This document shows, piece after piece, positions 12,833 to 63,650 of a stretch of 64,000 nucleotides of DNA. The position numbers were made by a program, and so were the translations under genes. How positions within the stretch are numbered: the first letter of the stretch is position 1; the number at the start of each line of letters is the position of its first letter. Location: NCBI GenBank assembly GCA_012026655.1, contig JAAILG010000396.1, forward strand, positions 1 through 64,000, read 5' to 3'. The DNA comes from Hydrolagus affinis (Eukaryota). The notes beneath the pieces are model-generated. The model saw only the letters and a program-made list of their open reading frames with translations. It did not search any database and was not told the origin of the DNA.

Positions 12833-13038
12833 CAGTAAAAGCCCATTTATCCGGCACCCGATCAACCGCAACTTCCGTATAACCGGCATCGCAAAAAAAA
12901 ATCTGCATTCGATTAACCGGAATTTATCCTGAAAAATGCATTGGAATTTTTTTTTCGCATTTTCGGCTGAATATCCGGCACGTGCTTTAACCGGCATTGC
13001 CTAGGTCCCATGGGTGCCGGATAAACGGGCTTTTACTG
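12833..13038. mobile_element. 206-bp Tigger/pogo-type (Tc1/mariner superfamily) MITE
   Basis: 27-bp TIR CAGTAAAAGCCC(A/G)TTTATCCGGCACCC with one mismatch, TA duplication on both sides, subterminal AACCGGCA repeats. Confidence 0.93.
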
Positions 13039-14694
13039 TACTTGGTAAAATATGTAGGTTAGCGGGTGGAATTGCTGGAGTGGTAGGGTACAAAGTAGCA
13101 GAAGTCTGTCAGGCCTGTGTTTTCACAGTATGAAACAAATAGATTTACAGTCCACTTTACGGCACTAAAATGTTGTGGCTTCTTGTACATCTCAATTCTT
13201 TGAACCAACATATAGTATTTGTAAATAGTGAGGAAAGTAAGTAAAGCTTTGTTACAATCTTTCTTTCATTATGTACTTACTATTTTGTATACGCAAGGCC
13301 TAAGAAGTTTGTTTTGCAACAGTTTTAAACTGTAAATATTCTTCCATAACAAAAGTACAGAGGAAAGGAAGAGATTAAGCTAGATTTCATGTGAAGCCCA
13401 AATTCCTACTTTGCAGTAAACTACCGAGATTTTATTTCAGCAATGGATATTAACATACCAAACCTCATATTGGAAAGTGATGTACAACTTTGTATTTGAT
13501 GTACCGTACACTTTTGTATGTATTACGTGTTTTATTTGGCCAGTCAGCAAAATATCAAGCATACTGATCATGACGCACAGCACTGCTATTGATAGTAAAA
13601 ACAGCCACTTCTAGATTTTACGATGTACATAACTGTATTGCAGCATACTGTGCATATTTTGAAATTACAGTTCAGGAAATTATAATCAAATACCAACGTA
13701 GTCGGTTGTAGTCACAAAGGTGGTCATTCTGCCCCCAACTGACTGGAAACAATTGGCAGAATAACCCAGTTACATCATTCACACAGAGCTTGCTATTTGG
13801 CAACTTATGAAGAAAAAGTCACTTGTGTTCAGGCTATGTGCATACATCAACAGAAAGTGCTTTTAAAGGAATTCACCAAACTAATTGGAACAGAGAACTG
13901 GTAATCACAAAAGTCTAACACTGCGCTTGAGCTTTTTATAGACACTTACAAATAAACTAACCTTCTGCTCCTGAAAGACTCCATTAGCTGCTGTTGATTT
14001 AATTTCTGCCTCATGGTTTGTGGGTTTCCACTTTCATCTGCTGTAGCCCTGTGCAGTATATTTTGAGTACAGGTCAGGTATGCAGCCTCTGCATTACACT
14101 CTAGACTTTCCACCCTGGAATCCAGCTGTTTAGGTGTTGGGGTGGGAGATACAGTAATATCACATCAGTAGACTAGTTGCCAGGGCATAAGACAAGAAGC
14201 AAAACCGAGACAAGGACTCCAATAATGATGTTATATACTGTATTTATCACATACTGATTGAAAGAGGTGCAGGATTTTACATACAGGGTTGCAGCCTAGA
14301 GTTTTGGAGAGTGAAGATAAAGATGTATTTTAGTCTGGGGATGTAGGAAATCAATTTGTTTTAAAGGGGAAGCATTACTGTGCTGCAAAGAGTTTATAGA
14401 ACTGGTCTACTTGAGCTGTATCTGGACTTTCCTTGTTTGATTCTCTGCAGGTTGTTCTCTTAATCTTTTCTCTTCCCCCCCAAACAAACGCAGTTGCAAT
14501 AAATGATAATATCAGAGGGTTAAAAGATCACATCACAAGTCCGCTTGTAAACCTTGTAAAATTACACTGAAGTGATTTAACAAGGCAATAAGACTTCTTT
14601 TGATAATGTTCCCAAAGTCAAGGATTTCCAGCAGAGGGTCACAACTGTGGTTGGAGAAGAATGCTTTCATGTAGCAGCACCACAGTTGGATTGC

Positions 14695-19260: not shown

Positions 19261-20340
19261 TTTGTTGAAGGCCAGAACCTACATTGACTTATTCTGAACA
19301 CCTCCAATCTGTCTGGAACAGAATACATTGTATGTGGAAGTGCTCTGAGACACCGTCCGGCGTGGAGGGCGCTATATAAATCAAAGTTCTTGTTGCTGTT
19401 GGAAGTGTGGTTGGATCAGATAATACAATCACCTTAGACTATATCAGTTAAATTCTTTCATTGCTGTTTTGTTCTGGGCTATCTAATTCTCTATTAAAGG
19501 ACTGGACCATTTTTTTCTTATTTCTGTTCTGTATTATTAATTTAGAATCATTTTGCCATTCTGCTGATTTGGGGTGGTGGATTACTTTGTGAATTGCTGT
19601 TTCTGTGAGTCAATGCATGATAAACAGGCAGGGTACAATGGACTCACTCACTACCAGATTAAGGTACTTGAACCAGAATCAATTTCATTTGAGAGGGAAA
19701 GATAAATAAATGATCAAATGAATGAACAATCTTCCGAGACTCCAAAAAATCTTCAATGTTAGGTTTGTTTTTATAGCATTTGTAAAATTTAGACTTGGCT
19801 GGATTTCAGAATGGATAATTACAGAGCGTCATTTTTTTGGTATCTCACACACTCTTTCCAATTTAAAGCTCTACCTCTATCTTCAGGGACTGGACAGTTC
19901 AAGAATTGGATACAATAGAGATTAACCCACAAGTCCTCATTCTCCCACCTCCCGAAGATAGGAAGCAAGCTGCCTGCAGTTTTCTCTCTCACTCTCTCTC
20001 CCCCACTCAGATGATCCAATAACACTGACAGGGTTAGCCTGTGTGCAAATGTCAATGGAAACCTCAAATCAGGCTCAGGCTTCCAGGGTGACAATCTTGA
20101 TGTACCAGTGTTGTAACCAGAGGGCTGGCAGTGCTTGGCCTCTCAAACTACGCCAATGTTTCTTTACCCCCGGTCAAAAATGTCATAATTTCTTTTTAAA
20201 AAAAATTGTATTTGTCATTCCACGGTTATTTGGGGGGGCGGAAATCATTCATCGTTACCAATTATCCGTTGCACTTTGATTTACACTTCTGAATTACACA
20301 GATTCATTAGATTCACACAAACATATATAGATATTATATA

Positions 20341-21077
20341 CAGTAGAAGCCCGTTTATCCGTGACTTGATGAACCGGCACTTTCGTAAAACCGGCACACC
20401 CCAAAAAATATATCCCCATTCGATAAACCGGAACTTATCGGGAACAATAGCAGTGGAGGAATTGTAAATGCATAAATAATAGCAGATAATAACAGAATAT
20501 TGTATTGGTACTTATTGTTAAAACTACTCTCTTGCGCTTCTCACCTTTACTGGTAGATGCTGCGCTTGAAGCCATGATGCTGTGGTTGAGGTTTATAGTC
20601 CAGCGATTCTTTTTAAAATGGAGCACGCCAAGCGGGTGAAAAAAAAACGGAGCGCGACTTTAAAGCCTTTCTAGCGGCAAGCTGATAACGCAAGCCAATA
20701 ATCCACATTGTCGCGCAGGTGCAGTATTTTGGTTTGCCGCTAGTAGAGTCTAGGGTTATCGGCTTGCCGCTCATAAAGCTTTAAAGTCTCGCTGCCATTT
20801 TTGTCACCCGCTTGGTGTCCTCCATTTTACAAAGAATCGCCGGACAATAAACCCCAACTAGAAAAGGTGAGAATGGCAAGAGAGTAGTTAACAATAAGTA
20901 CCAATACAATATTCTTTTATTATCTATTATTATTTAGTCTGGTGTGTATGGTGTGTGTTAAAATAACTTTAATTTCTTTGTGGTGAGTTTTCAGCCGCGG
21001 GCCACCCGAATATGCGACAGGCGCATTAACCGGCATTGGCCAGGTCCCGCAGGTGCCGCATAAACGGGCTTTTACTT
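20341..21077. mobile_element. ~740-bp non-autonomous Tigger/pogo element, copy 1 (unedited), with internal ~200-bp inverted repeat
   Basis: TIR CAGTAGAAGCCCGTTTATCC, TA flanks; arms ~20473-20689 and ~20755-20935 are reverse complements; minus strand encodes MASSAASTSKGEKRKRVVLTIS, like a Tigger/CENP-B-family transposase N-terminus. Confidence 0.92.
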
Positions 21078-21664
21078 TATATAGAATATGTATATTTGCT
21101 CAGATTGGAGTGTAACAGAGTCACATTTATCCTCTGGCGTTCAGCAATTGCCAAGACATACAGGCCCTTTATATGAACTTGCCAGTAGGGCAATAGAGGG
21201 CTTCCCTCAAGGTCCAGTGCTTAACACATGAGCATAATTCAGTTCACTGGGTTTAAATGAACTTTTATTCACCCTGTGTTTCTAAAAATGTGAATTCATT
21301 AAGGTTGAAGATTTAAAAAAAAGTGATTTTCTCTGTCCACTTGCCCAACTTTTAATAAACAGATATAAATTGTGAAGTCTAAATGGAATGGATGGATGGG
21401 GAGTTGGTAACAACAATAGGCAAGGGGCCACTTTTTGTATGGGGCGAATTGGTCTTGTGGAAAATATTCTCATTGTCCTGATGGTTTGCACCCACAAGTC
21501 AAAATGAGAGTGAAAAGGACACGAGTAGTCAATTGTGTGTCACATGTTTGCACATATTCAAAGGGAAATGGTATATATCACAGCTTGTGCCACAAGTGTA
21601 AAGATCGATGGTCTCAGTGCCTTGGCTTGTTTTTCAAACTACCCCTAAAATCAACTGAAGGACC

Positions 21665-21830
21665 AGCATAGGACAGAGGTTCAGATGAAAGAAAGGTCCA
21701 TTTTACCTCATCCTTCCAGCATACCAATCCTAGTCTCTTCCAATTACAGTATCAAATGGATACTTTAATAAGCCATTGTCTCAATTTTAGCCACATTTCT
21801 TGGTAACCGGTTCCAGTTAAGTGACATTGA
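21665..21830 (-). mobile_element. Old CR1 3' fragment
   Basis: cataggacagagg..aaggtccattttacctcatcc...ggtaaccggttccagtt, similar to 58720-58900. Confidence 0.5.
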
Positions 21831-21872
21831 CAATGTGTGCTATCCCAGCTCGGGTCTGAAACAATGACTGCC

Positions 21873-21938
21873 CAGCGCCTTGGGACGTCCCTCTGTCGTG
21901 AAAGGCGCCGTACAAGTGTAATTTTGTTGTTGTTGTTG
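21873..21938 (+). mobile_element. Minimal L2 3' end
   Basis: cagcgccttgggacgtccctctgtcgtgaaaggcgccgtacaagtgtaattttgttgttgttg. Confidence 0.8.
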
Positions 21939-23019
21939 GTCAGCGTTTAAAACTATCTGAACTGCAGCCGCACATTTTACACTACGAGTGCCTGTTAGAG
22001 TTACTGAATGTTTCCCTGTGTGTGAGTCAGAGAGGGTTGCCACTTTACCCTTCTTCCCTCCACGCGAAGAAGAGTCTGACCTCCACTCGATGTTAGTGAA
22101 GTGGCTGAGCTCAGCAGCTCGACAGTCTGTGTGAGAGAGTACAGGCACCGACTGGCCCACAGCCAAGCATTCCAGCAGCACTACCTTCTGCAGCCCCACT
22201 AAGTGCTGGCACTTCAAAGAAAATGACCGGATAAAATGCCCACACAAGCTTCAGAACAACAGCAGCTTACATACAACATCAGCGGGAAAATCAGGCTTGC
22301 AAACAACTTGGTTAGAACTCAATGGTGTGGATGCGCTGGTTATTATCAGAATTGACAGGTGATCAAAGCACCAAAATTTAAAAAACATTCTTTCCTACAG
22401 AAAAACTCAATGGTGTATAAATTCAGAACTGAAAAAAGGTCATTTTGCCTATTCAACCTGTCCAACTTAACAACAGCAACGCACTACGCTGGTATAGTGC
22501 CCTTCACATTGGAAAGACCTAAGAGATCAAGCTGAAAGAAAGTCACTGATAGGAGTTCGTTATTATAGGAAATAACAACCCTCTCCATTGGTGATAAGAC
22601 TCCTCCTGCCCATAGTAGACCAAAGGGCCAGCAGTTCAGAAACAGCCTGCAGAAATACATTTTCCTTTTTTACCCAATGCCAAAATTTTATTAATTGGGC
22701 AAACATAACTGGCAATTCAGTTTCATTGCAATGTATTGAAGAAGCCTTGTGTGGATCTTGTGTTCGAGTCACATTGCATTCAATCATTTCTTATTTTTTT
22801 TAAAACACGCAAGAATATATTTCAAAATGAACAATGAAATGTATCTGAGCCACGGGATGAGGCCCCCCCAACCACCACAAGGCCCCTGTAGCTTGACAGT
22901 CCTCTAGTACTGAAGGCAACAATGAAAGGTATATAGATAAACCAAAAATGACACAGTACCCTAAGGTTCCCACAGTATTAAGAGCTGGAACTGTGACAGG
23001 TTCTGCACAGGGCAAGCTG

Positions 23020-23403
23020 ATTGTCAGATCAGTTCAACTGGCTCCTCAACATGTCCCTATCATCAGAACAGTCTTTTTCTTACCAGTGTGTCCCTTTTAT
23101 CAGGTCAGACTGTTTGCTGCTCAGTGTGTCCCTGTTATTGATCCGTCCATCTCCTACTAAATGTGTCCCTATTTTGAGACCATTCTTCAATATGTCCCCA
23201 TTATCAGACAATGTAATTCCTACTATCAGATCATTCTGCAGCTTTGCAGGCATATACCTATTATCAGGCAATTCTTTCTGCATGCTCAGTGTCTCCTCGC
23301 TGTCGGCTCAATACAATCCTTCAAGGGCGTTCCCATTATCAGATCAGTCTGCATTTCATTCAAGGCGTCCCTATTATCAGGTCAATCTGTTGTTGCTCAG
23401 CGT
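23020..23403. repeat. Degenerate minisatellite, ~35-38-bp unit, about 10-11 copies
   Basis: Recurring tgtccctattatcagatcagtctg...gctcagtg. Confidence 0.8.
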
Positions 23404-23754
23404 AAATGGGAGAGTGCTTTAAGGGTTGGCGAAGTAAATCTAAACAAGATGGCCAGTGATTGAAAATGAATTTTCTCTGCAAATCCTTCTCCTCTCTGTA
23501 CTGTTTGGTATTTAACTGGATGTCAATCACATTTAACATATTCTTTCGCAAATCATTCCCAGACACATATCTAACAGTATTTTTCTTTGAGCAGGTTGAG
23601 TCCCCACATACCCCAGAAGCAATATGAACAAAATTGCTAAGAGCAACAGAAAAGTGTCTCTTTCTTTCAAAGATCTGTGCCACTTTCGGATGCTGCTGTG
23701 ACCCTTGGTATCTTTTTCAAAAAAAGTATCTTATATAGCTATTTATACACAGTA

Positions 23755-23850
23755 TAGATAGATTAGATAAGATAGATAAGATAGATTAGATAGATTAGAT
23801 TAATAGATTAATAGATTGATAGATTGATAGATTGATAGATTGATAGATAG
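23755..23850. repeat. Compound GATA/TAGAT/TAGATTGA microsatellite
   Basis: Seen directly. Confidence 0.9.
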
Positions 23851-25480
23851 GACAAACCCAATACAGATGAAGAGAGAAAACCTGTAAATGTTGCCTGGCT
23901 CTGCTGAATGCCTGAAAGTCCGACGTCAGGTTTGGATCAATACTTATCCTTATCAGAGGCCCCGGCTTAATCTTTACAAAATGTATGAAAGTGAAATTGA
24001 TTTTTTTCCTCTCTTTTATAAGATTTGAAGAGTTTTTTTGGGGAAAAAATATACATCCAAAATAAACCACAGAATCTAAACAAGAACTATGCCTTGTTAT
24101 TAGCACCAGCCATCAGACAGTAAACACATCACTGCTTACAAAGGAGGGATTATGCAGTTCTGAAGTATCATAGTCTATTGATTAATGCAATTACTGCACA
24201 ATAATCCTTTCCTTCTGCCAATTGTGAATTTTGCAACTCGTTCACAGGTCGACCACTCAGGTAACAATCGCAATGATTTGGGGGTCTCATTTTCAAAAGG
24301 CACAAAGGTACTTGCAAACAGTGAATCCCGTACGTCACCAGAGGCACTGAAGTAGAGTCAGCCACAACTCTATGCAGGATAGAAGCCAATTTCCTGCCGG
24401 AGCTAGGAGCCTTCTTTGGCCACTATCTGGGTTTCTGAAAGTCGGGATGGGAAATTGGCATGTGAACAGAGCTCCAGAGGATGGATCCTGACACAGTGAG
24501 AACTTTGCAGGATTCACCATTTACAAATCCTGTTTGCAAACCTCACAAATTCGCTGCCAGCGACTCGACAGTGATGCTGGCAACACTTGTTGAGATGGTC
24601 GAGGAGTAATGAGGTTGTGTAATATTCCTAATGCACAAACCATTTGTTTGTTGCGTAACATGCTCAAAGGATACACATTAATGAAACTTTGAATCTGTCA
24701 CAAATAAAATAATAGGGTTAGAGAGGTTGGAGGGTTGACCATACAGTTTAAACCATTTTAAACCCTGCGCTGGTTGTTCAAACATTTAATCACATTCCGA
24801 TTGTTTCTGGTTCTGATGAAAAGAAGATGTAAAACCACTGATAGCATTGCAATATGTGAGCCCCGTGTTCTTTCTCAATAACAATATTTATACTGAAATG
24901 TTTCCAGAAGTTAAAACAGCACAATGCTTTGTAAATGAGATCATACTCTGCCAGTTACATGACTGAACACAGACCAAGTTCAACAGGGGTGGGGGCGGAG
25001 AAGAGAGAGATTCTCCAAGTACAGAAAAACCTATGCTAACTCTACCGCAAGAGATTTGAATTAGAATTTTTTTCTTTGAAGCCATGAACCAAAAGAAAAT
25101 TTAGCAATAGCATTTCGCTGTCAGTCATTTCGATTCAAACAATATGGATCACATACGGTCATTGTAAATGTTTATCTATATGGCAGCACGGAGCAAGTTA
25201 CTGTAGGATATGACGAAATTGTTTGCCAAGTTTTGTTAGAATACACATAAGGCTGTTTGGCACAGCGCGCATGGGACGAGATGCCATGACTGCAACTCTT
25301 CACATGATGTAGTGCAGGTACCAGCCAGACAGTGGCACCAAGAAGCTTGGTCATAGTGGGCTAAGGTGGTTGTTGGGTGGGCAGGGGGAAGAGTTAGAAA
25401 GGCGGCAAGTCAGAGCAACTAACAACCGAATGAAATATGCACAGATGGAGGGCACAAAACAGCTTTACCTGCCTCCTTTA

Positions 25481-31299: not shown

Positions 31300-32038
31300 C
31301 AGTAGAAGCCCGTTTATCCATCACCCGCGGGACCTGGCCAATGCCAGTTAAAGCACCTGCCGGATACTCGGACGGCCCGCGGCCGAAAACACACTACAAA
31401 AAAATCAAAGTTCTTTTAACACACATCATATACACCAGACTAAGAAATGGCAGATAGTGACAGAATGTTGTGTTGGTGCTTGTTGTTGGGGCTGCTCTCT
31501 TGCGCTTCTCACCTTTGCTGGTTGGGGTTTGCAATCCAGTGATTCTTTTTTGAATGGAGGGCGCCAGGCGGGTGGAAAAGGCGGCAGCACGATTTTAAAG
31601 TAGAACAACTTTACTAGCTGCAAGCCGAAGCCCCTAGACTCTACTAGTGGCAAACCGAAATACTGCACCTGTGCAACAATGTACGTTATCGGCTAGCGTT
31701 ATCGGCTTGCCGCTAGTATGACTTTAAAGTCGCGCTCCGTTTTTTTCGCCCGCTTGGCATGCTCCATTTTGGGGGAGTCGCTGGACTGTAAACCTCAACC
31801 GCAGCATCATGGCTTCAAGCGCAGCATCTACTAGCGGGGGTAGGGGGCGTGGGAGAGTGGTTTTGATGGTGAGTGACAATGCAGTATTCTGTTATTATGT
31901 TATTATTTATACATTTACAAATCCTCCACTGCTATTGTTCTGGATAAGTCCCGGTTTATTGAATAGGACTTTTTTTTTGGAGTGCCGGTTATATGGAAGT
32001 GCCGGTGCATCGAGTCATGGATAAACGGGCTTCTACTG
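31300..32038. mobile_element. ~740-bp Tigger/pogo element, copy 2 (opposite orientation to copy 1; A-to-G hypermutated arms)
   Basis: TIR CAGTAGAAGCCCGTTTATCCAT at both ends, TA on right flank; colinear with the reverse complement of 20341-21077. Confidence 0.93.
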
Positions 32039-33545
32039 TACAGTGTTTACATCACACATCATGAAAATGAGTTGCTATGAATAATAGCTGCGACCCCAAA
32101 CTAAACACTGGAACAATTACATTACCATTCTGACAATGTTAACTGTCTGCACCCAACTAGATTTTTCTAGTGGTAAATATTAGTTAAGAATTCCTCCCCG
32201 ATCATTGTCCAATAATTTACACTAATTTTCTTTGTAGAATAATTGGTCTATGAACTCTCACAAGCACAGCAGGGATCTACTTAATTATTAAAGCACAGAC
32301 TTCTGGAAGAGATACACAATAGTTATTGAATAACGATTCATATTTAATTTTCTATTTTAATTAGGTTTACATTGCAATCATTTCAAGCTGTTAATTTTTT
32401 TTCATTTTGTGCTGGAAATTGGAGAGAACAGGTCATTTCTGCTCCACGTTAGGTTATTTTGTTGCAGAATTATGGTTATTTATTTTGTGTTATTCAATTT
32501 GGTCACATTTGTTGAGAGAGGGTGAAATGACCTCAGTTTCATTCTGCAATTCTCTCATCTTCTGAAATGTCAGACTGATGCAGATGTACTTTTCCATAGC
32601 TACCAGGAATCACACCCATATCTCACCCAAACAACCATTGTCAGGGATACTAATAATATTACTGCTAATAATACTAATAATATTATGGCGTATTTTGGCA
32701 AGTGTTTTGATTGTTGGGAATCCCAGTGGGAATTAAAACTGTTCTCATCCTAACTCACACTTGTTAATTGTTCCAGTGGGGGTCACCAATAGTATCCCAA
32801 GATAGGAAGTCTGACCAATTTCCCCCTCACATATACAGTCCTCCCTACAATCAAACACACCAGCCTTCACTGCCCTGAGTGAGTTAAACTAAGCCAGAAG
32901 AAACCCAGGTTCAAGCCTGGGGCTGTCCTAGACATATTGTTCAAACTGTAATATGCATTGTGTGCAAGCACAGAAGCTAAGGAACCCAATCTCGGTGTAT
33001 TTAAACAACACTGCTACTCTTCTCACTTTGGCTCAAAGATGCATATGGAATAGGTGGCAAACAGCTGATTAAGACACAAGAGCATGACTTTACATACAAG
33101 TGATTTTATGAGATTGAAGGCCTCTGGTATAAAATACAATATACAAATTCCAGTGAGATATAGCCAGTAAATAGCTTGGCTTTAGGTCCCTCTGCACACA
33201 CATGGTACCATTTTTGAAATGGAAATTGAATCCTTGGAATGTGTAACTCTAGTGAGAAAAGGCACCTGCTTGCCAAGCTTAAATCAGGCTATTTTAATAA
33301 ACTAACTTGAAACTATTTACCTTTGCAATTGTTCTATATTTTTACAGGCCTTCTGGATGTTCTACTCTGCTATAAAGCACAGAGAACCTGAATTAATGCA
33401 TTGAGAGAGAAATTAGGAAAATTGTAGTTGCAATCCCCATCAATGCAGAATCTATTCGGATATTTAAAATGGAGATGGATATTTAGGGAGCCAGGCTATT
33501 ATAGGATATCAAAAGCCCCAACAAATGAAATTGAAACACCTGACA

Positions 33546-59095: not shown

Positions 59096-61239
59096 AAACA
59101 GTTTGACATTTTGTGTAAACAGGACTTATCTGATTTTCCTGAGTTCTTGTGTCCACTTATGAGTTTAACCACGATGAGAACTGCATCTTTTGTACAGCAC
59201 ACTCTGTACCTCCACAATTTATTATTTGGCATCTACATCAGTAGCTTGTAATTCTGCCAGCCTGGACTCAGTTCCCAGTAAAATGTTCCTGTCAATGACT
59301 CAATAACACTCTACTGGTTTGATTGAACTTCATTGTGTGTGTTCTGATTTGTAAAGCAACTCTTGCCGTCACTAAAGGTGAAACATCCATTATGTAGCCA
59401 GCTAAACAATACCTCAAGGTACAGGACCATTTAAATGTTCTTTTCTTTTCAATCCGCAGAAGGGTTTCCATGAATTTCCTCCTTGTGGTTTCCCGTAATC
59501 AAATGACGGTTTTAGGCTAGGGAATCCGATTCTGGCCAGACCGGGTATAAAAGTATTCACAGGTTGTGCAAGGTCAAGAAAAATGAAATTTACTAAAAAC
59601 AAATAGTTTCACGAGTCAACCATAGCAATCACCTTTTTAATATGGGGTGCACTACAAAACAATTAACAACATGCAAACTGGCAGACTTGCTGAAAATAAA
59701 AGGTTGTCTTTCTATAAGGCTGTAGTTTATAGATGGCATCAAGAATTAATTGCTGTTAATGCTGTTTGAAAAGTGAGTTAAATCCAAATTGGACTGGATT
59801 TATTGTGTCAATTACAAGTTGCGCTCAGAGAATATCGGATTGTGAAATTGGCAGCGAGATTCGGGATCGCCATATCCCAAGTTGGCAAAGGATGGAGAAC
59901 CAAACAGTCCATTGTTGTTCTGCAAACGTCAAAGGAAATGCACCTTAAGAGCTTTAAGTAAACATTGCATTTAGTTTTTGTACTGAACTGTTGACTTCTT
60001 GAGGTTAACTTCCCAATGCATCATTGCTTATCCCACTCACTGTGAGATCAAGTGAGAGTATGACCCCCTTATCTTTAAGCTACCATATGTTTTGCTCCCA
60101 TTCGAAATACATGCAACTTTTCACCCTTTACCATCCATTTATAAAATTTTAAATTAAAACCCGCCCTTTTTCCATGGCCCATTCTCTCCGTCTTCTTGAT
60201 TTTTTTAATAATCGAAAATATTCTTGCTGTTTGCTGCAACACGGCTTTCATTTGCCAGCGTTTATTTATAAAATGAATATTGACAACATTCTCTGAGGCG
60301 TAAAAGATGTTCCCCAGCGCATTTTGTATTGAAGTAAAAATAAACAGTAACATCTGCAGCCCAAACTGGTAAATGCTGTATATAGAAAGAAACCCTTTTT
60401 TAAAAAAAAACTAAACACCATCTGCAATCATGCTCAGATCTTTTTAGTGCATATAAATAGCCCTTTGTACCATTTCCTTACATGCAACACGCTTTCTTTA
60501 CCAGAACACACCAGCCTCTGTGGGCAATCGTTTCCCCGTAGTGTTTCAGACACAGCTATATAAGGACAATTTGCATATTCTACAACCCCCAACTCACACA
60601 ATGCTGCCACAAATTAATCCTCTAGGACTAATAACTAAACACTGTTTTCCTTCACTTCCAAAACAGTTCTGCATTTTAAAACATATCGCAAGACTAATGG
60701 GGAGGGCAGTTACAATTCCATACACTAACACCTTTAGAATGCTCTGCTGCCTGCCTTGCAGCATATAAATAACATTCTTGTGACATGCTATCATTTTGGT
60801 TAAAGTGAAAGGCGCTGTACAAATGTAATTTGTTGTTGTTGTTAAAGCTGTGTGTCAGAAGGTACATTACCGAAAAAATTTCACCTCTCACTGAAAATCA
60901 ATAATGCCTTGAAATCTTAAAACAGCTTAAAATATCAATCACACTTCCCCCAACAAATATATCGTAAACAGTCCTTTCAATGCTTTCTTAAAATGCACAC
61001 CTCGGAATTTCAATTTCTTCCACCCTCCCCGCAACCTCTATCAAGAAAGGCACATTTCAATGATTCATTGATAGGCACAGCAAAATGTTGCAAATCCATT
61101 GGGCCATATTACTTACTATTCCATGCCTGAGAAAGACATGGAAATTTTGATTTGTGGCAGTGAACCAGATTTTTTTTTGGTGGGGGATTGGGGGACCATG
61201 GGCAAATAAATGGAACAAACAAGGAAACATAATATACAG

Positions 61240-61620
61240 CTTTTGCCCACAAATTATACAATCCATTCACTTTACAGTATATTCTGGGACGTCTAAATGA
61301 TGTGATAAGTAGCTATATCAAATAATAATAATAATCCTTGCATTTGATGTAGTGCTTTTCATGTCTTCTAGACGTCTCAAAGTGCTTCACAGAATATACT
61401 AAAAAATGAATTGACTCTATATATGTTGTCAAAACGGGACAGCCAATTGCGCACAGCAGTGTCCCACAACAGTCGTGGGTTGAAATGACTGATATATTAT
61501 CGCTTTTTTTTTTAGGGATTATTATTAGATGTGTGGAGTAAGGAAACTTGCCCAAAGTTTCACCCTGCCTGGAATTGAACCCAGGTCTCTCTCTTATAAG
61601 GCGAGTGGCTACAGGACTCC
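61240..61620. mobile_element. Two family A SINEs tail-to-tail (+ tail fragment 61240-61322; - near full-length 61322-61620)
   Basis: gctatatcaaataataataataatccttgcatttgatgtag junction. Confidence 0.85.
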
Positions 61621-62856
61621 ACAAATGTAAGGATTATTTCTACAAAAAAATACAGTGAAGCAGAATTTTGGTCACAAAACCTCCATTCCCAATTTCCAGA
61701 TACTGTGAGTTTTTACCAATTTAGGGACACCTCATCATACGTCATGTGTTGGTCGGGAACAAATGAGGTTGCAGTGAATATTATTTGTTTACTCACGAGC
61801 ACTATCATATGCCAGATTCTTTTAGTCATATTGCATTGCACATACAAAGTACACAGTCACTACAATTTACAATGAAAACCCGTGAAGTGCTTTGAGAATC
61901 CCAGGATATGAAAGAAATCATATCAATTGCAAGAACATGCATTATTAATTATTATTATTATTATTTATTATTCTTTGACCTGCAGGATCAATTAGACCTG
62001 CCAGCAGAATCAATTCAGAAAGTTATTTTTTCTTAAATTGACATGGGTAAGACGTTAGAAAATAGGGATTTAATAGATAATGCTCTGGAAACATAATGGA
62101 AGATTTTTTGTTGACATTGTTGAATTTCTTTCATAAAAAGGAAAAAAAAACTTTCTTCCACAGTTTCCCTACCCCTCCAATTCTCTTCCGCGGGTTTTAT
62201 GTTTTTGTTTTTCCACCATGCAGTTTGAATTTGACAACAAATGCAAAGCAATGAATCTGTATTTTTAAAAACAAATAGAAATGCCAACTCAACTCTCTCC
62301 CCTTCTCCCCCAACAAGGGAGCATCAGCCAAACTCATCTCCAGTCATGAGGAAACACAGTCACTCAGGCTTGCCTTTTAGTTTAAGTAACAACCGTAGAG
62401 ACATAGCAAAATGCCTCTTGTCTTGTGAAAACAGTGTTAATAGAGGCTTTGTGGAAAAGTAAGGATAGGTAAAAGTTCACTGACGGTTGGAAATTTACTG
62501 GTGGTTGGAGATCACAGTAGCCAATACAACTATTGTTTCACTGTTTTAAAGAGAGAGTAAGCAAGCAAGTAAAAGTACCAAAAGACCTTGAATTGCGAAG
62601 AGAAACAGACTGGACAGTCCCATTATGAGGTTGCTCTACATCAGCAAACATTTCACTCGGTGCTGAGTATAATAAATTGAGGAGAAGCAGGTTGCTCAAG
62701 AGAGAATCCCAGTGGGAATGTAGTGTGCTTCAAGGAAATGTATTGCACTTAAAGAGACTTACTTTCCAGTGGGCTAAATAGTAAGAATAGTCAACACAGA
62801 CGGGTGGCAGAACATATCCAAGGCTGTATCTATGAAATGATTTCCATCCTACAAAC

Positions 62857-63650
62857 GTCAGCCTGGCTCAGTTGGTATCATCCAAAACTCTGCTGCCCAC
62901 ATACTCACCCGCACCAAACTTCACTCCCCCATTACCCCAGTCCTTGCCAAACTTCACTGGCTCCCTATCCCCGAGAGGATCGACTTCAAGATCCTCACCC
63001 TTCTTTTCAAATCCCTCCACTCTTCTGCACCCCCCCTACCTATCTGACCTCCTCTCGCCTCAAACCAGCTCCCGTTGCCTTTGCTCCACTGGGTCTGGCC
63101 ACTTCCATGTCCCCCGAATCCTCCGCTCTACCCTCGGCGGCCGTGCCTTCAGCCACTATGCCCCAAGGCTCTGGAATTCCCTTCCTCACTCCCTTCGCCT
63201 CGCCCAACTCTTTTCTCAGTTTCAGGTCCCAGCTGAAGACCTTTCTCTTCGACCGCGCCTTTGGTCACCTTTCTACCCTTGCCCTTGGCTTGGTCCCGGG
63301 ATCCGCTATTGCGAAGCGCTCTGAGACGCTGTCCGGTATGGAGGGCACTATATAAATCAAAGTTGTTGTTGTTGTATCATTCTCACCTCTGAGTGAGGAC
63401 ATTGTGGGCTCAAGCCCCATGTCTGGACTCACATAGTCCAGGCTGCATTGTTTGAGGTGCCTTCCATCAGATGAGATATTAAAATGACACATCCCAGCTA
63501 ACAATCCCCAGATAAAATGTTATCATCAGTTCTGTGGCTGTTTGTGAGATATTGCTTTGTGGAAATTCACTGCCAACAAAATACAGTCACTACACTTTAA
63601 ATGAATTCTGCATAGCTCTTTGAAACATCCTCCTGATGTCAAAAGGTGCT
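62857..63650 (+). mobile_element. SacSINE1-like SINE split by an L2 insertion
   Basis: gtcagcctggctcagttggtatcat [L2] tctcacctctgagtgaggacattgtgggctcaagcccc. Confidence 0.75.
62882..63373 (+). mobile_element. 5'-truncated L2 LINE with 7-bp TSD
   Basis: Peptides QNSAAHILTRTKLHSPITPVLAKLHWLPIPERIDFKIL, PYLSDLL..LGGRAFSHYAPRLWNSLP, FRSQLKTFLFDRAF; GTATCAT at 62875-62881 and 63374-63380. Confidence 0.93.

Follow-up and report, generated by a model that had tools for sequence, protein, structure and literature searches.

The T's at positions 31850 and 31867 of the window (the whole 64,000-nucleotide stretch of Hydrolagus affinis DNA analysed here) are best explained as CpG-decay scars on G's that a short DNA transposon inherited from its founder. 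At a probability of roughly 0.8, that founder would have come from a hairpin RNA that was edited by ADAR, reverse-transcribed and then multiplied by cut-and-paste transposition. The A>G changes beneath the scars were not made at the 31300-32040 locus, a point that the first-pass annotation of this DNA had missed. Previously known editing fossils are APOBEC G>A changes in LTR elements and ADAR A>G changes in retroviral proviruses; what appears to be new here is the existence of ADAR-type subfamilies in a cut-and-paste transposon.

The element and the features discussed below are collected in Table 1. Terminal inverted repeats of the MITE family are about 28-31 nt long, 90% matched and start with CAGT. 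Target sites were scored in 106 aligned copies: of the 35 with both end motifs intact, 29 have TA at either end, and the flanks are unrelated to each other. Genome searches return thousands of candidate copies. A search for DDE_1 led to three transposase-bearing relatives (L129, L137 and L138), all of them broken, whose first 110-190 nt are common with the MITE. L137 additionally shares the transposase 5′ region, which aligns to window 31742-31878 (the ATG of the remnant, read by eye, is at 31809), and the Pfam domains CENP-B_N, HTH_Tnp_Tc5 and DDE_1 are found in both L137 and L127. These shared ends and transposase domains indicate that the 741-bp element is an internally deleted, folded-back pogo/Tigger derivative, and its ends and target sites suggest mobilisation by a pogo/Tigger transposase. 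As a transposon, the family is an ordinary Tigger-type one.

Table 1. Features of the MITE copy, its hairpin, its CpG sites and its inverted relative (positions in the window)
Feature	Position	Strand	Remark
Non-autonomous pogo/Tigger element (MITE), edited G-type, lineage G1	31300..32040	+	741 bp
Left terminal inverted repeat, extent approximate	31300..31327	+	preceded by TT, a decayed TA target site
Right terminal inverted repeat	32013..32040	-	TA directly after
Left arm of the long hairpin, with A>G changes	31441..31600	+	
Right arm of the hairpin, with A>G changes	31720..31909	+	holds the transposase 5′ region remnant
33-nt bulge in the right arm	31800..31832	+	unedited: 0/8 A in G-type, 0/6 T in C-type
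Edit-made CpG, still CG in the 31300-32040 copy	31747..31748	+	TG in 7/74 G-type copies
Edit-made CpG, still CG in the 31300-32040 copy	31835..31836	+	TG in 9/74 G-type copies
CA>CG>TG footprint 1	31850..31851	+	partner G31502 kept
CA>CG>TG footprint 2	31867..31868	+	partner G31485 kept
A-type (unedited, lineage A1) family copy, inverted	20339..21076	-	about 10 kb from 31300-32040

Two further loci carry the same terminal repeats. A pogo-like transposase region at L145:535-2896, also present in L144 and L148, was considered as the autonomous parent and rejected: apparently another element has inserted itself there into a related shell with the family's terminal repeats, and a partial G-type copy adjoins it. 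Within the window, positions 12833-13040 hold an element of about 208 bp with the same terminal repeats and TA sites and without the hairpin.

G at 31300-32040 against A at the inverted copy 20339-21076 dominates the differences between these two neighbours. Family-wide, the G-type majority differs from its source lineage A2 (19 copies) by 50 A>G changes and no other substitution, and the C-type majority (25 sampled copies) differs from the same source by 32 T>C changes and, again, nothing else; T>C of the C-type is A>G read on the opposite strand. In 44 columns both unedited lineages have A and the G-type has G, while none of the 199 T columns of the G-type contains more than 5% C. The state of a copy is all-or-none: when 25 core sites are scored, 56 copies carry G at no more than one of them and 50 copies at 19-25, with no intermediates.

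Exact 18-mer matches across the genome number 480 for the G-type, 3092 for the A-type (up to two per copy) and 50 for the C-type, the last count including at least two G-type right arms (on C1184 and on C18232, the latter being L023), so that 48 were used. Calibrated on alignments, these counts give about 800-1200 G-type, 2400-2650 A-type and about 90 C-type copies; founder-edited descendants would make up an estimated 900-1300 of some 3500-3700 copies, about a quarter to a third. Query-based samples of copies are biased to their queries and end-based samples to the A2/G lineage. The first alignment left out nine partial copies and five duplicates, L201 was omitted because it apparently duplicates L206, and L007 fitted the rules of both G1 and G3.

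Judged by comparison of copies and relatives, the A state is ancestral, because A gives Watson-Crick pairs and because the transposase-bearing relatives mostly have A at the columns edited in the G-type (17 of the 22 aligned columns in L137 and 10 of 13 in L129). All groups are of similar age, with a divergence from their own majority of 3.2-4.0% at non-CpG and 16-18% at CpG sites. Columns 31470, 31842 and 31844 stand apart: A2 has A there, A1 and the G-type have G, and the A of A2 leaves the stem with A-C mismatches at these columns. Editing may have turned them back, or the G-type may have branched off before they arose.

Ten unedited copies fold as a long, near-perfect hairpin with a bulge in the right arm. 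G-type edits affect 48 of the 85 outer-stem A's and 10 of the 123 elsewhere (p = 2e-14); the corresponding figures for the C-type are 29/82 and 3/118 (p = 3e-10). Bulge and element ends hold no edits at all, and the short inner stem is almost unedited. Editing has reached 67 of the 122 adenosines preceded by U or A and 10 of the 45 preceded by C or G (p = 2e-4). A 3′ G preference or a clear 3′ bias is absent from the edited sites. The 5′ U/A neighbour is the one favoured by ADAR1 and ADAR2 according to the text extracted from PMC3113232. A's with a 5′ G are moderately depleted, 5 of 20 being edited, a weaker effect than the strong 5′ G depletion described for hyper-edited reads in the extract of PMC5625713.

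One arm on the minus strand is nearly the other arm on the plus strand, and therefore the G-type and the C-type test each other. In this mirror comparison the partner of a C-type site is an edited G-type site in 28 of 30 cases, and 43 of the 45 sites left unedited in the G-type have an unedited mirror (p = 2e-8). The C-type retains the arm-specific letters of A2 and lacks 21 mirror edits; it is therefore a separate event and not an arm swap. Private re-editing of single copies gave no firm sign: rare A>G changes are slightly more frequent in the G-type left arm (17/795) than in the A-type (23/2295), and no such rise is seen in the right arm (12/1029).

Turning to the footprints themselves, the first-pass annotation had seen that at two sites the C directly 5′ of a changed A is now T, that the partner arm keeps its pairing G, and had proposed a path from CA through CG to TG. 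The letters are as described: the window has T before G at both positions, the unedited 20339-21076 copy has CA at both, and the G's opposite are retained (Table 1). Its caution that two sites are merely suggestive was also well placed. Two of five candidate sites in this copy are TG, an outcome with a probability of 0.007 at the non-CpG rate of 2.8% and of 0.18 at the CpG rate of 16%; the two sites alone are therefore only suggestive, and it is the family data that settle the matter.

T is not the family consensus at either position in the 74 G-type, the unedited and the C-type copies checked. The 74 G-type copies read CA 41, CG 25, TG 6, TA 1 and CT 1 times at 31850-51 and CG 40, TG 27, CA 3 and something else 4 times at 31867-68; the CG intermediate sought in paralogues is common among them. 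Unedited A1 (24), A2 (19) and C-type (19) copies have no T at 31850 and three at 31867, all of them as TA. Considering 50 G-type copies, C>T reaches 17.9% (44/246) at the five edit-made CpGs against 2.8% (167/5922) at non-CpG C (p = 1e-20), which supports the proposed path across the family, and edit-made CpGs decay like old ones (15.8%, 379/2401; p = 0.41).

A conditional test leads to the same picture. Over four sites in the 74 G-type copies, T precedes a site holding G in 49 of 200 cases and a site holding A in 3 of 83 (p = 8e-6). Taken singly, 31850 gives p = 0.04 and 31867 is uninformative, only four copies holding A there; compared with unedited copies, 31867 gives p = 3e-6. Lineage G2, never edited at 31851, has CA at 31850-51 in 27 of 28 copies and TG in none. 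The naive contrast between the G-type and all A-type copies is weak (17.9% vs 10.9%, p = 0.024; p = 0.06 over four sites) because lineage A1 has T at 31835 and unedited copies vary at 31656-57, and at the three clean sites the G-type stands at 31/147 against 2/157 in unedited copies (p = 7e-9). The mirror path, TG>CG>CA, is found in the C-type at 31484-85, with CG in 9, TG in 6 and CA in 4 of 25 copies. C>T and G>A are raised only where CG exists, which fits decay of CpGs that presumably were methylated. Given the similar divergence of the groups and this decay, the edits are as old as the copies, with the CpG footprints serving as an internal clock: they were inherited from the founder and spread by transposition, and only the TG changes arose at the 31300-32040 locus.

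The course of events that we propose begins with a Tigger derivative that had been deleted internally and folded back into the long near-perfect hairpin still visible in its copies. These would have been present in RNA in both orientations, as today's family is in a related organism, where each run yields more than 8000 family reads and both orientations occur. Read-through RNA is the likely hyper-edited substrate: the pattern suggests that about one in two stem adenosines of the transcribed strand, whichever of the two that was, was converted by ADAR. The edited RNA would then have passed into DNA with both ends intact, through a LINE reverse transcriptase or through RNA-templated repair of an excision gap. 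Edited copies then spread, presumably by the transposase, as their TA target sites and unrelated flanks show, and new CpGs, presumably methylated, decayed at the rate measured for old ones.

Among the places listed for the RNA runs, A>G changes number 79 and 77 and T>C changes 60 and 58, whereas contigs have 17 and 11, a comparison confounded by transcripts of edited genomic copies; no RNA run is listed for the 31300-32040 locus itself. Retrocopy founder, poly(A) tail, long target duplication and retroposed flank were all absent from about 165 sampled copies of several thousand, among which a founder would be rare. An all-against-all comparison of 324 flanks for shared flanks returned six matches only, 86-88% alike over about 200-245 nt, which we read as ordinary repeats. 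By eye, LINE-like fragments occur in the window, along with many dispersed SINE/LINE-like repeats; the open frames at 2005-2541 and 62753-63355 presumably resemble the 3′ end of LINE reverse transcriptases. RNA-templated break repair has been reported in human cells (extracts of PMC12065846 and PMC10011834).

On an all-DNA duplex ADAR gives no product, and its rate on hybrids is lower than on RNA:RNA by a factor of at least 20 (kobs 0.02 per min compared with 0.4 or more; extract of PMC5389660), which favours the RNA route and makes a route through hybrids unlikely without closing it. Along the latter, a self-complementary transcript would pair with the displaced same-sense strand of both arms, and dA deaminated in the hybrid would be fixed by replication, so that DNA is edited directly and reverse transcription is dispensed with. 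Full-length ADAR2 does deaminate dA in hybrids in vitro (same extract). Edits in both arms, on one strand and with a spared bulge are predicted by this route as well, and it needs no retrocopy flank, of which none was found. Partial products should then exist, however, and the family is all-or-none. Deoxyinosine in DNA is subject to repair, and about 50 of these lesions would have had to escape it at once, several times over.

Still less probable is an error-prone polymerase, eta- or iota-like, that put G opposite T while copying the hairpin in post-excision gap repair. Such repair is the usual source of deleted elements of this kind, and the 5′ A/T preference fits the WA motif of eta-/iota-like errors. 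Polymerase errors are, however, mixed and far sparser, whereas the family presents a single substitution type, more than half of the stem adenosines changed, a spared bulge and the same mirror sites on both strands. We give next to no credence to a reversed direction, with the G-type ancestral and the A-type hypermutated G>A by APOBEC/AID. Well documented as G>A editing of genomic repeats is (extract of PMC4866542), it would start from an ancestral G, and the ancestral letter here is A by pairing and outgroup: A restores pairing, the transposase-bearing outgroups mostly have it, and the T>C subfamily comes from the same A2 source.

An artefact of assembly, sequencing or cDNA contamination, which fragmentation into 245,464 contigs and a 3.5-kb stretch present twice at 100% identity might invite, is negligible in view of the 480 exact matches of the G-type 18-mer, the unrelated TA-bearing flanks, the CpG decay that followed the edits, and the presence of this insertion and of G-type pieces in runs of other organisms. 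The earlier proposal that the A-to-G changes are old and genomic, not an RNA or assembly artefact, is borne out by the same four lines. Contigs run from unique flank into the element in 4/4 runs on the left and 3/4 on the right, stopping short of 31850/31867. The four runs with the insertion come from four studies, two organisms included; three are listed as probable DNA and one is of unstated kind, their flanks differ by about 1.5-2.5%, and G-type pieces are abundant in all. The 31300-32040 insertion is common to DNA runs of related organisms. As for the doubled stretch, 3515 bp of G000:C773 occur at 21300-24814 and 59200-62714 (L211 and L212), inverted and each with two G-type copies, either by recent duplication or as an assembly artefact. 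This inverted pair was discarded as a special case: both members are ordinary copies, and the stretch around them is the one found in duplicate at 100% identity.

If the founders were copied from edited RNA, as we prefer, the number of passages can be approached through the lineages. G1, G2 and G3 carry 49, 46 and 49 edits, 37 of them common to all three; the remaining ones fall in every private and pairwise class, and only two other substitutions separate the majorities. Allowing a tolerance of three differences, the 74 G-type copies fall into three groups, of 30, 27 and 5 members, and leave 12 singles, with less than one expected reversion per copy. The G lineages may be separate RNA molecules, which is possible because independent events pick the same sites. 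All four combinations are present for 104 of 136 site pairs, linkage among G-type sites shows no fall with distance, and a tree with nine copies per group leaves G1, G2 and G3 unresolved. Recombination among the G lineages could explain some singles and mosaic G patterns in part, and a founder count above two is therefore soft. On this reading RNA would have passed into DNA at least twice, once for the founder from each strand, and four or more passages are probable. A G-type copy at L028 (G000:C30263) contains a run of unedited A's at the columns of window 31748-31776, possibly converted, with either its own left arm or an unedited copy as the donor; conversion therefore does occur.

The family is like other pogo/Tigger MITEs (Tc1/mariner superfamily) in being short and non-coding, with CAGT terminal inverted repeats, a TA target and thousands of copies, and differs from them in that several of its subfamilies owe their distinction to nothing but A>G hypermutation of an internal hairpin on one strand. 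ADAR A>G hypermutation of retroviral proviruses was reportedly described by Felder in 1994 and by Hajjar and Linial in 1995, and there too an RNA-editing pattern is written into DNA by reverse transcription. Retroviruses, however, have an obligatory RNA stage and the reported ADAR mutants are single clones, whereas the MITE has no reverse transcriptase and its edited forms are germline subfamilies of about 90 to 1000 copies.

Similarly, APOBEC-edited LTR retrotransposons, as portrayed in the extracts of PMC4866542 and PMC2873906, owe their pattern to a one-strand deamination burst fixed in a repeat and recognised against the family majority; here the change is A>G instead of G>A, is confined to the paired stem, affects either strand and sits in a class II element. 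ADAR hyper-edited inverted repeats in animal transcripts share the change of about half of the stem A's and the preferred 5′ U/A (extracts of PMC5625713 and PMC3113232). Their edits are normally confined to RNA, whereas those of the MITE stand in DNA and show the weaker 5′ G depletion.

DNA transposons are held to have no RNA stage, and in the extract of PMC4866542 Knisbacher and Levanon used them as a negative control for editing because they go without reverse transcription; yet MITE founders with an ADAR-type pattern come from both strands. Searches of largely non-subscription literature, repeat-database annotations and supplements aside, turned up no description of a DNA transposon with ADAR-type subfamilies. 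The family would preserve, as a natural record, the entry of RNA edits into the germline.

How MITEs reach thousands of copies is described as an open question in the extract of PMC4055405, and the editing pattern is a barcode that makes an RNA-templated step in their amplification testable. We speculate, tentatively and leaning against it for now, that such copying was a regular step: excision gaps at transcribed loci would be refilled from their own RNA, the C-type and every G-type pattern, three large ones and up to a dozen singles, would each be a separate RNA molecule written into the germline, and ADAR marks would expose a hidden RNA route to high MITE copy number.

A simple genome-wide screen follows from these observations, namely for hairpin repeats in which mismatches between the arms lean to G-T or to A-C. 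Applied to 39 inverted repeats from outside the family, taken from the window and the retrieved loci, this test returned no convincing skew (best p = 0.004, uncorrected); it is low-powered, having flagged only 24 of 111 family hits. That best p value belongs to an inverted repeat formed by L060:365-522 and 1489-1646, which has 2 G-T against 14 A-C mismatches and partly overlaps a family copy.
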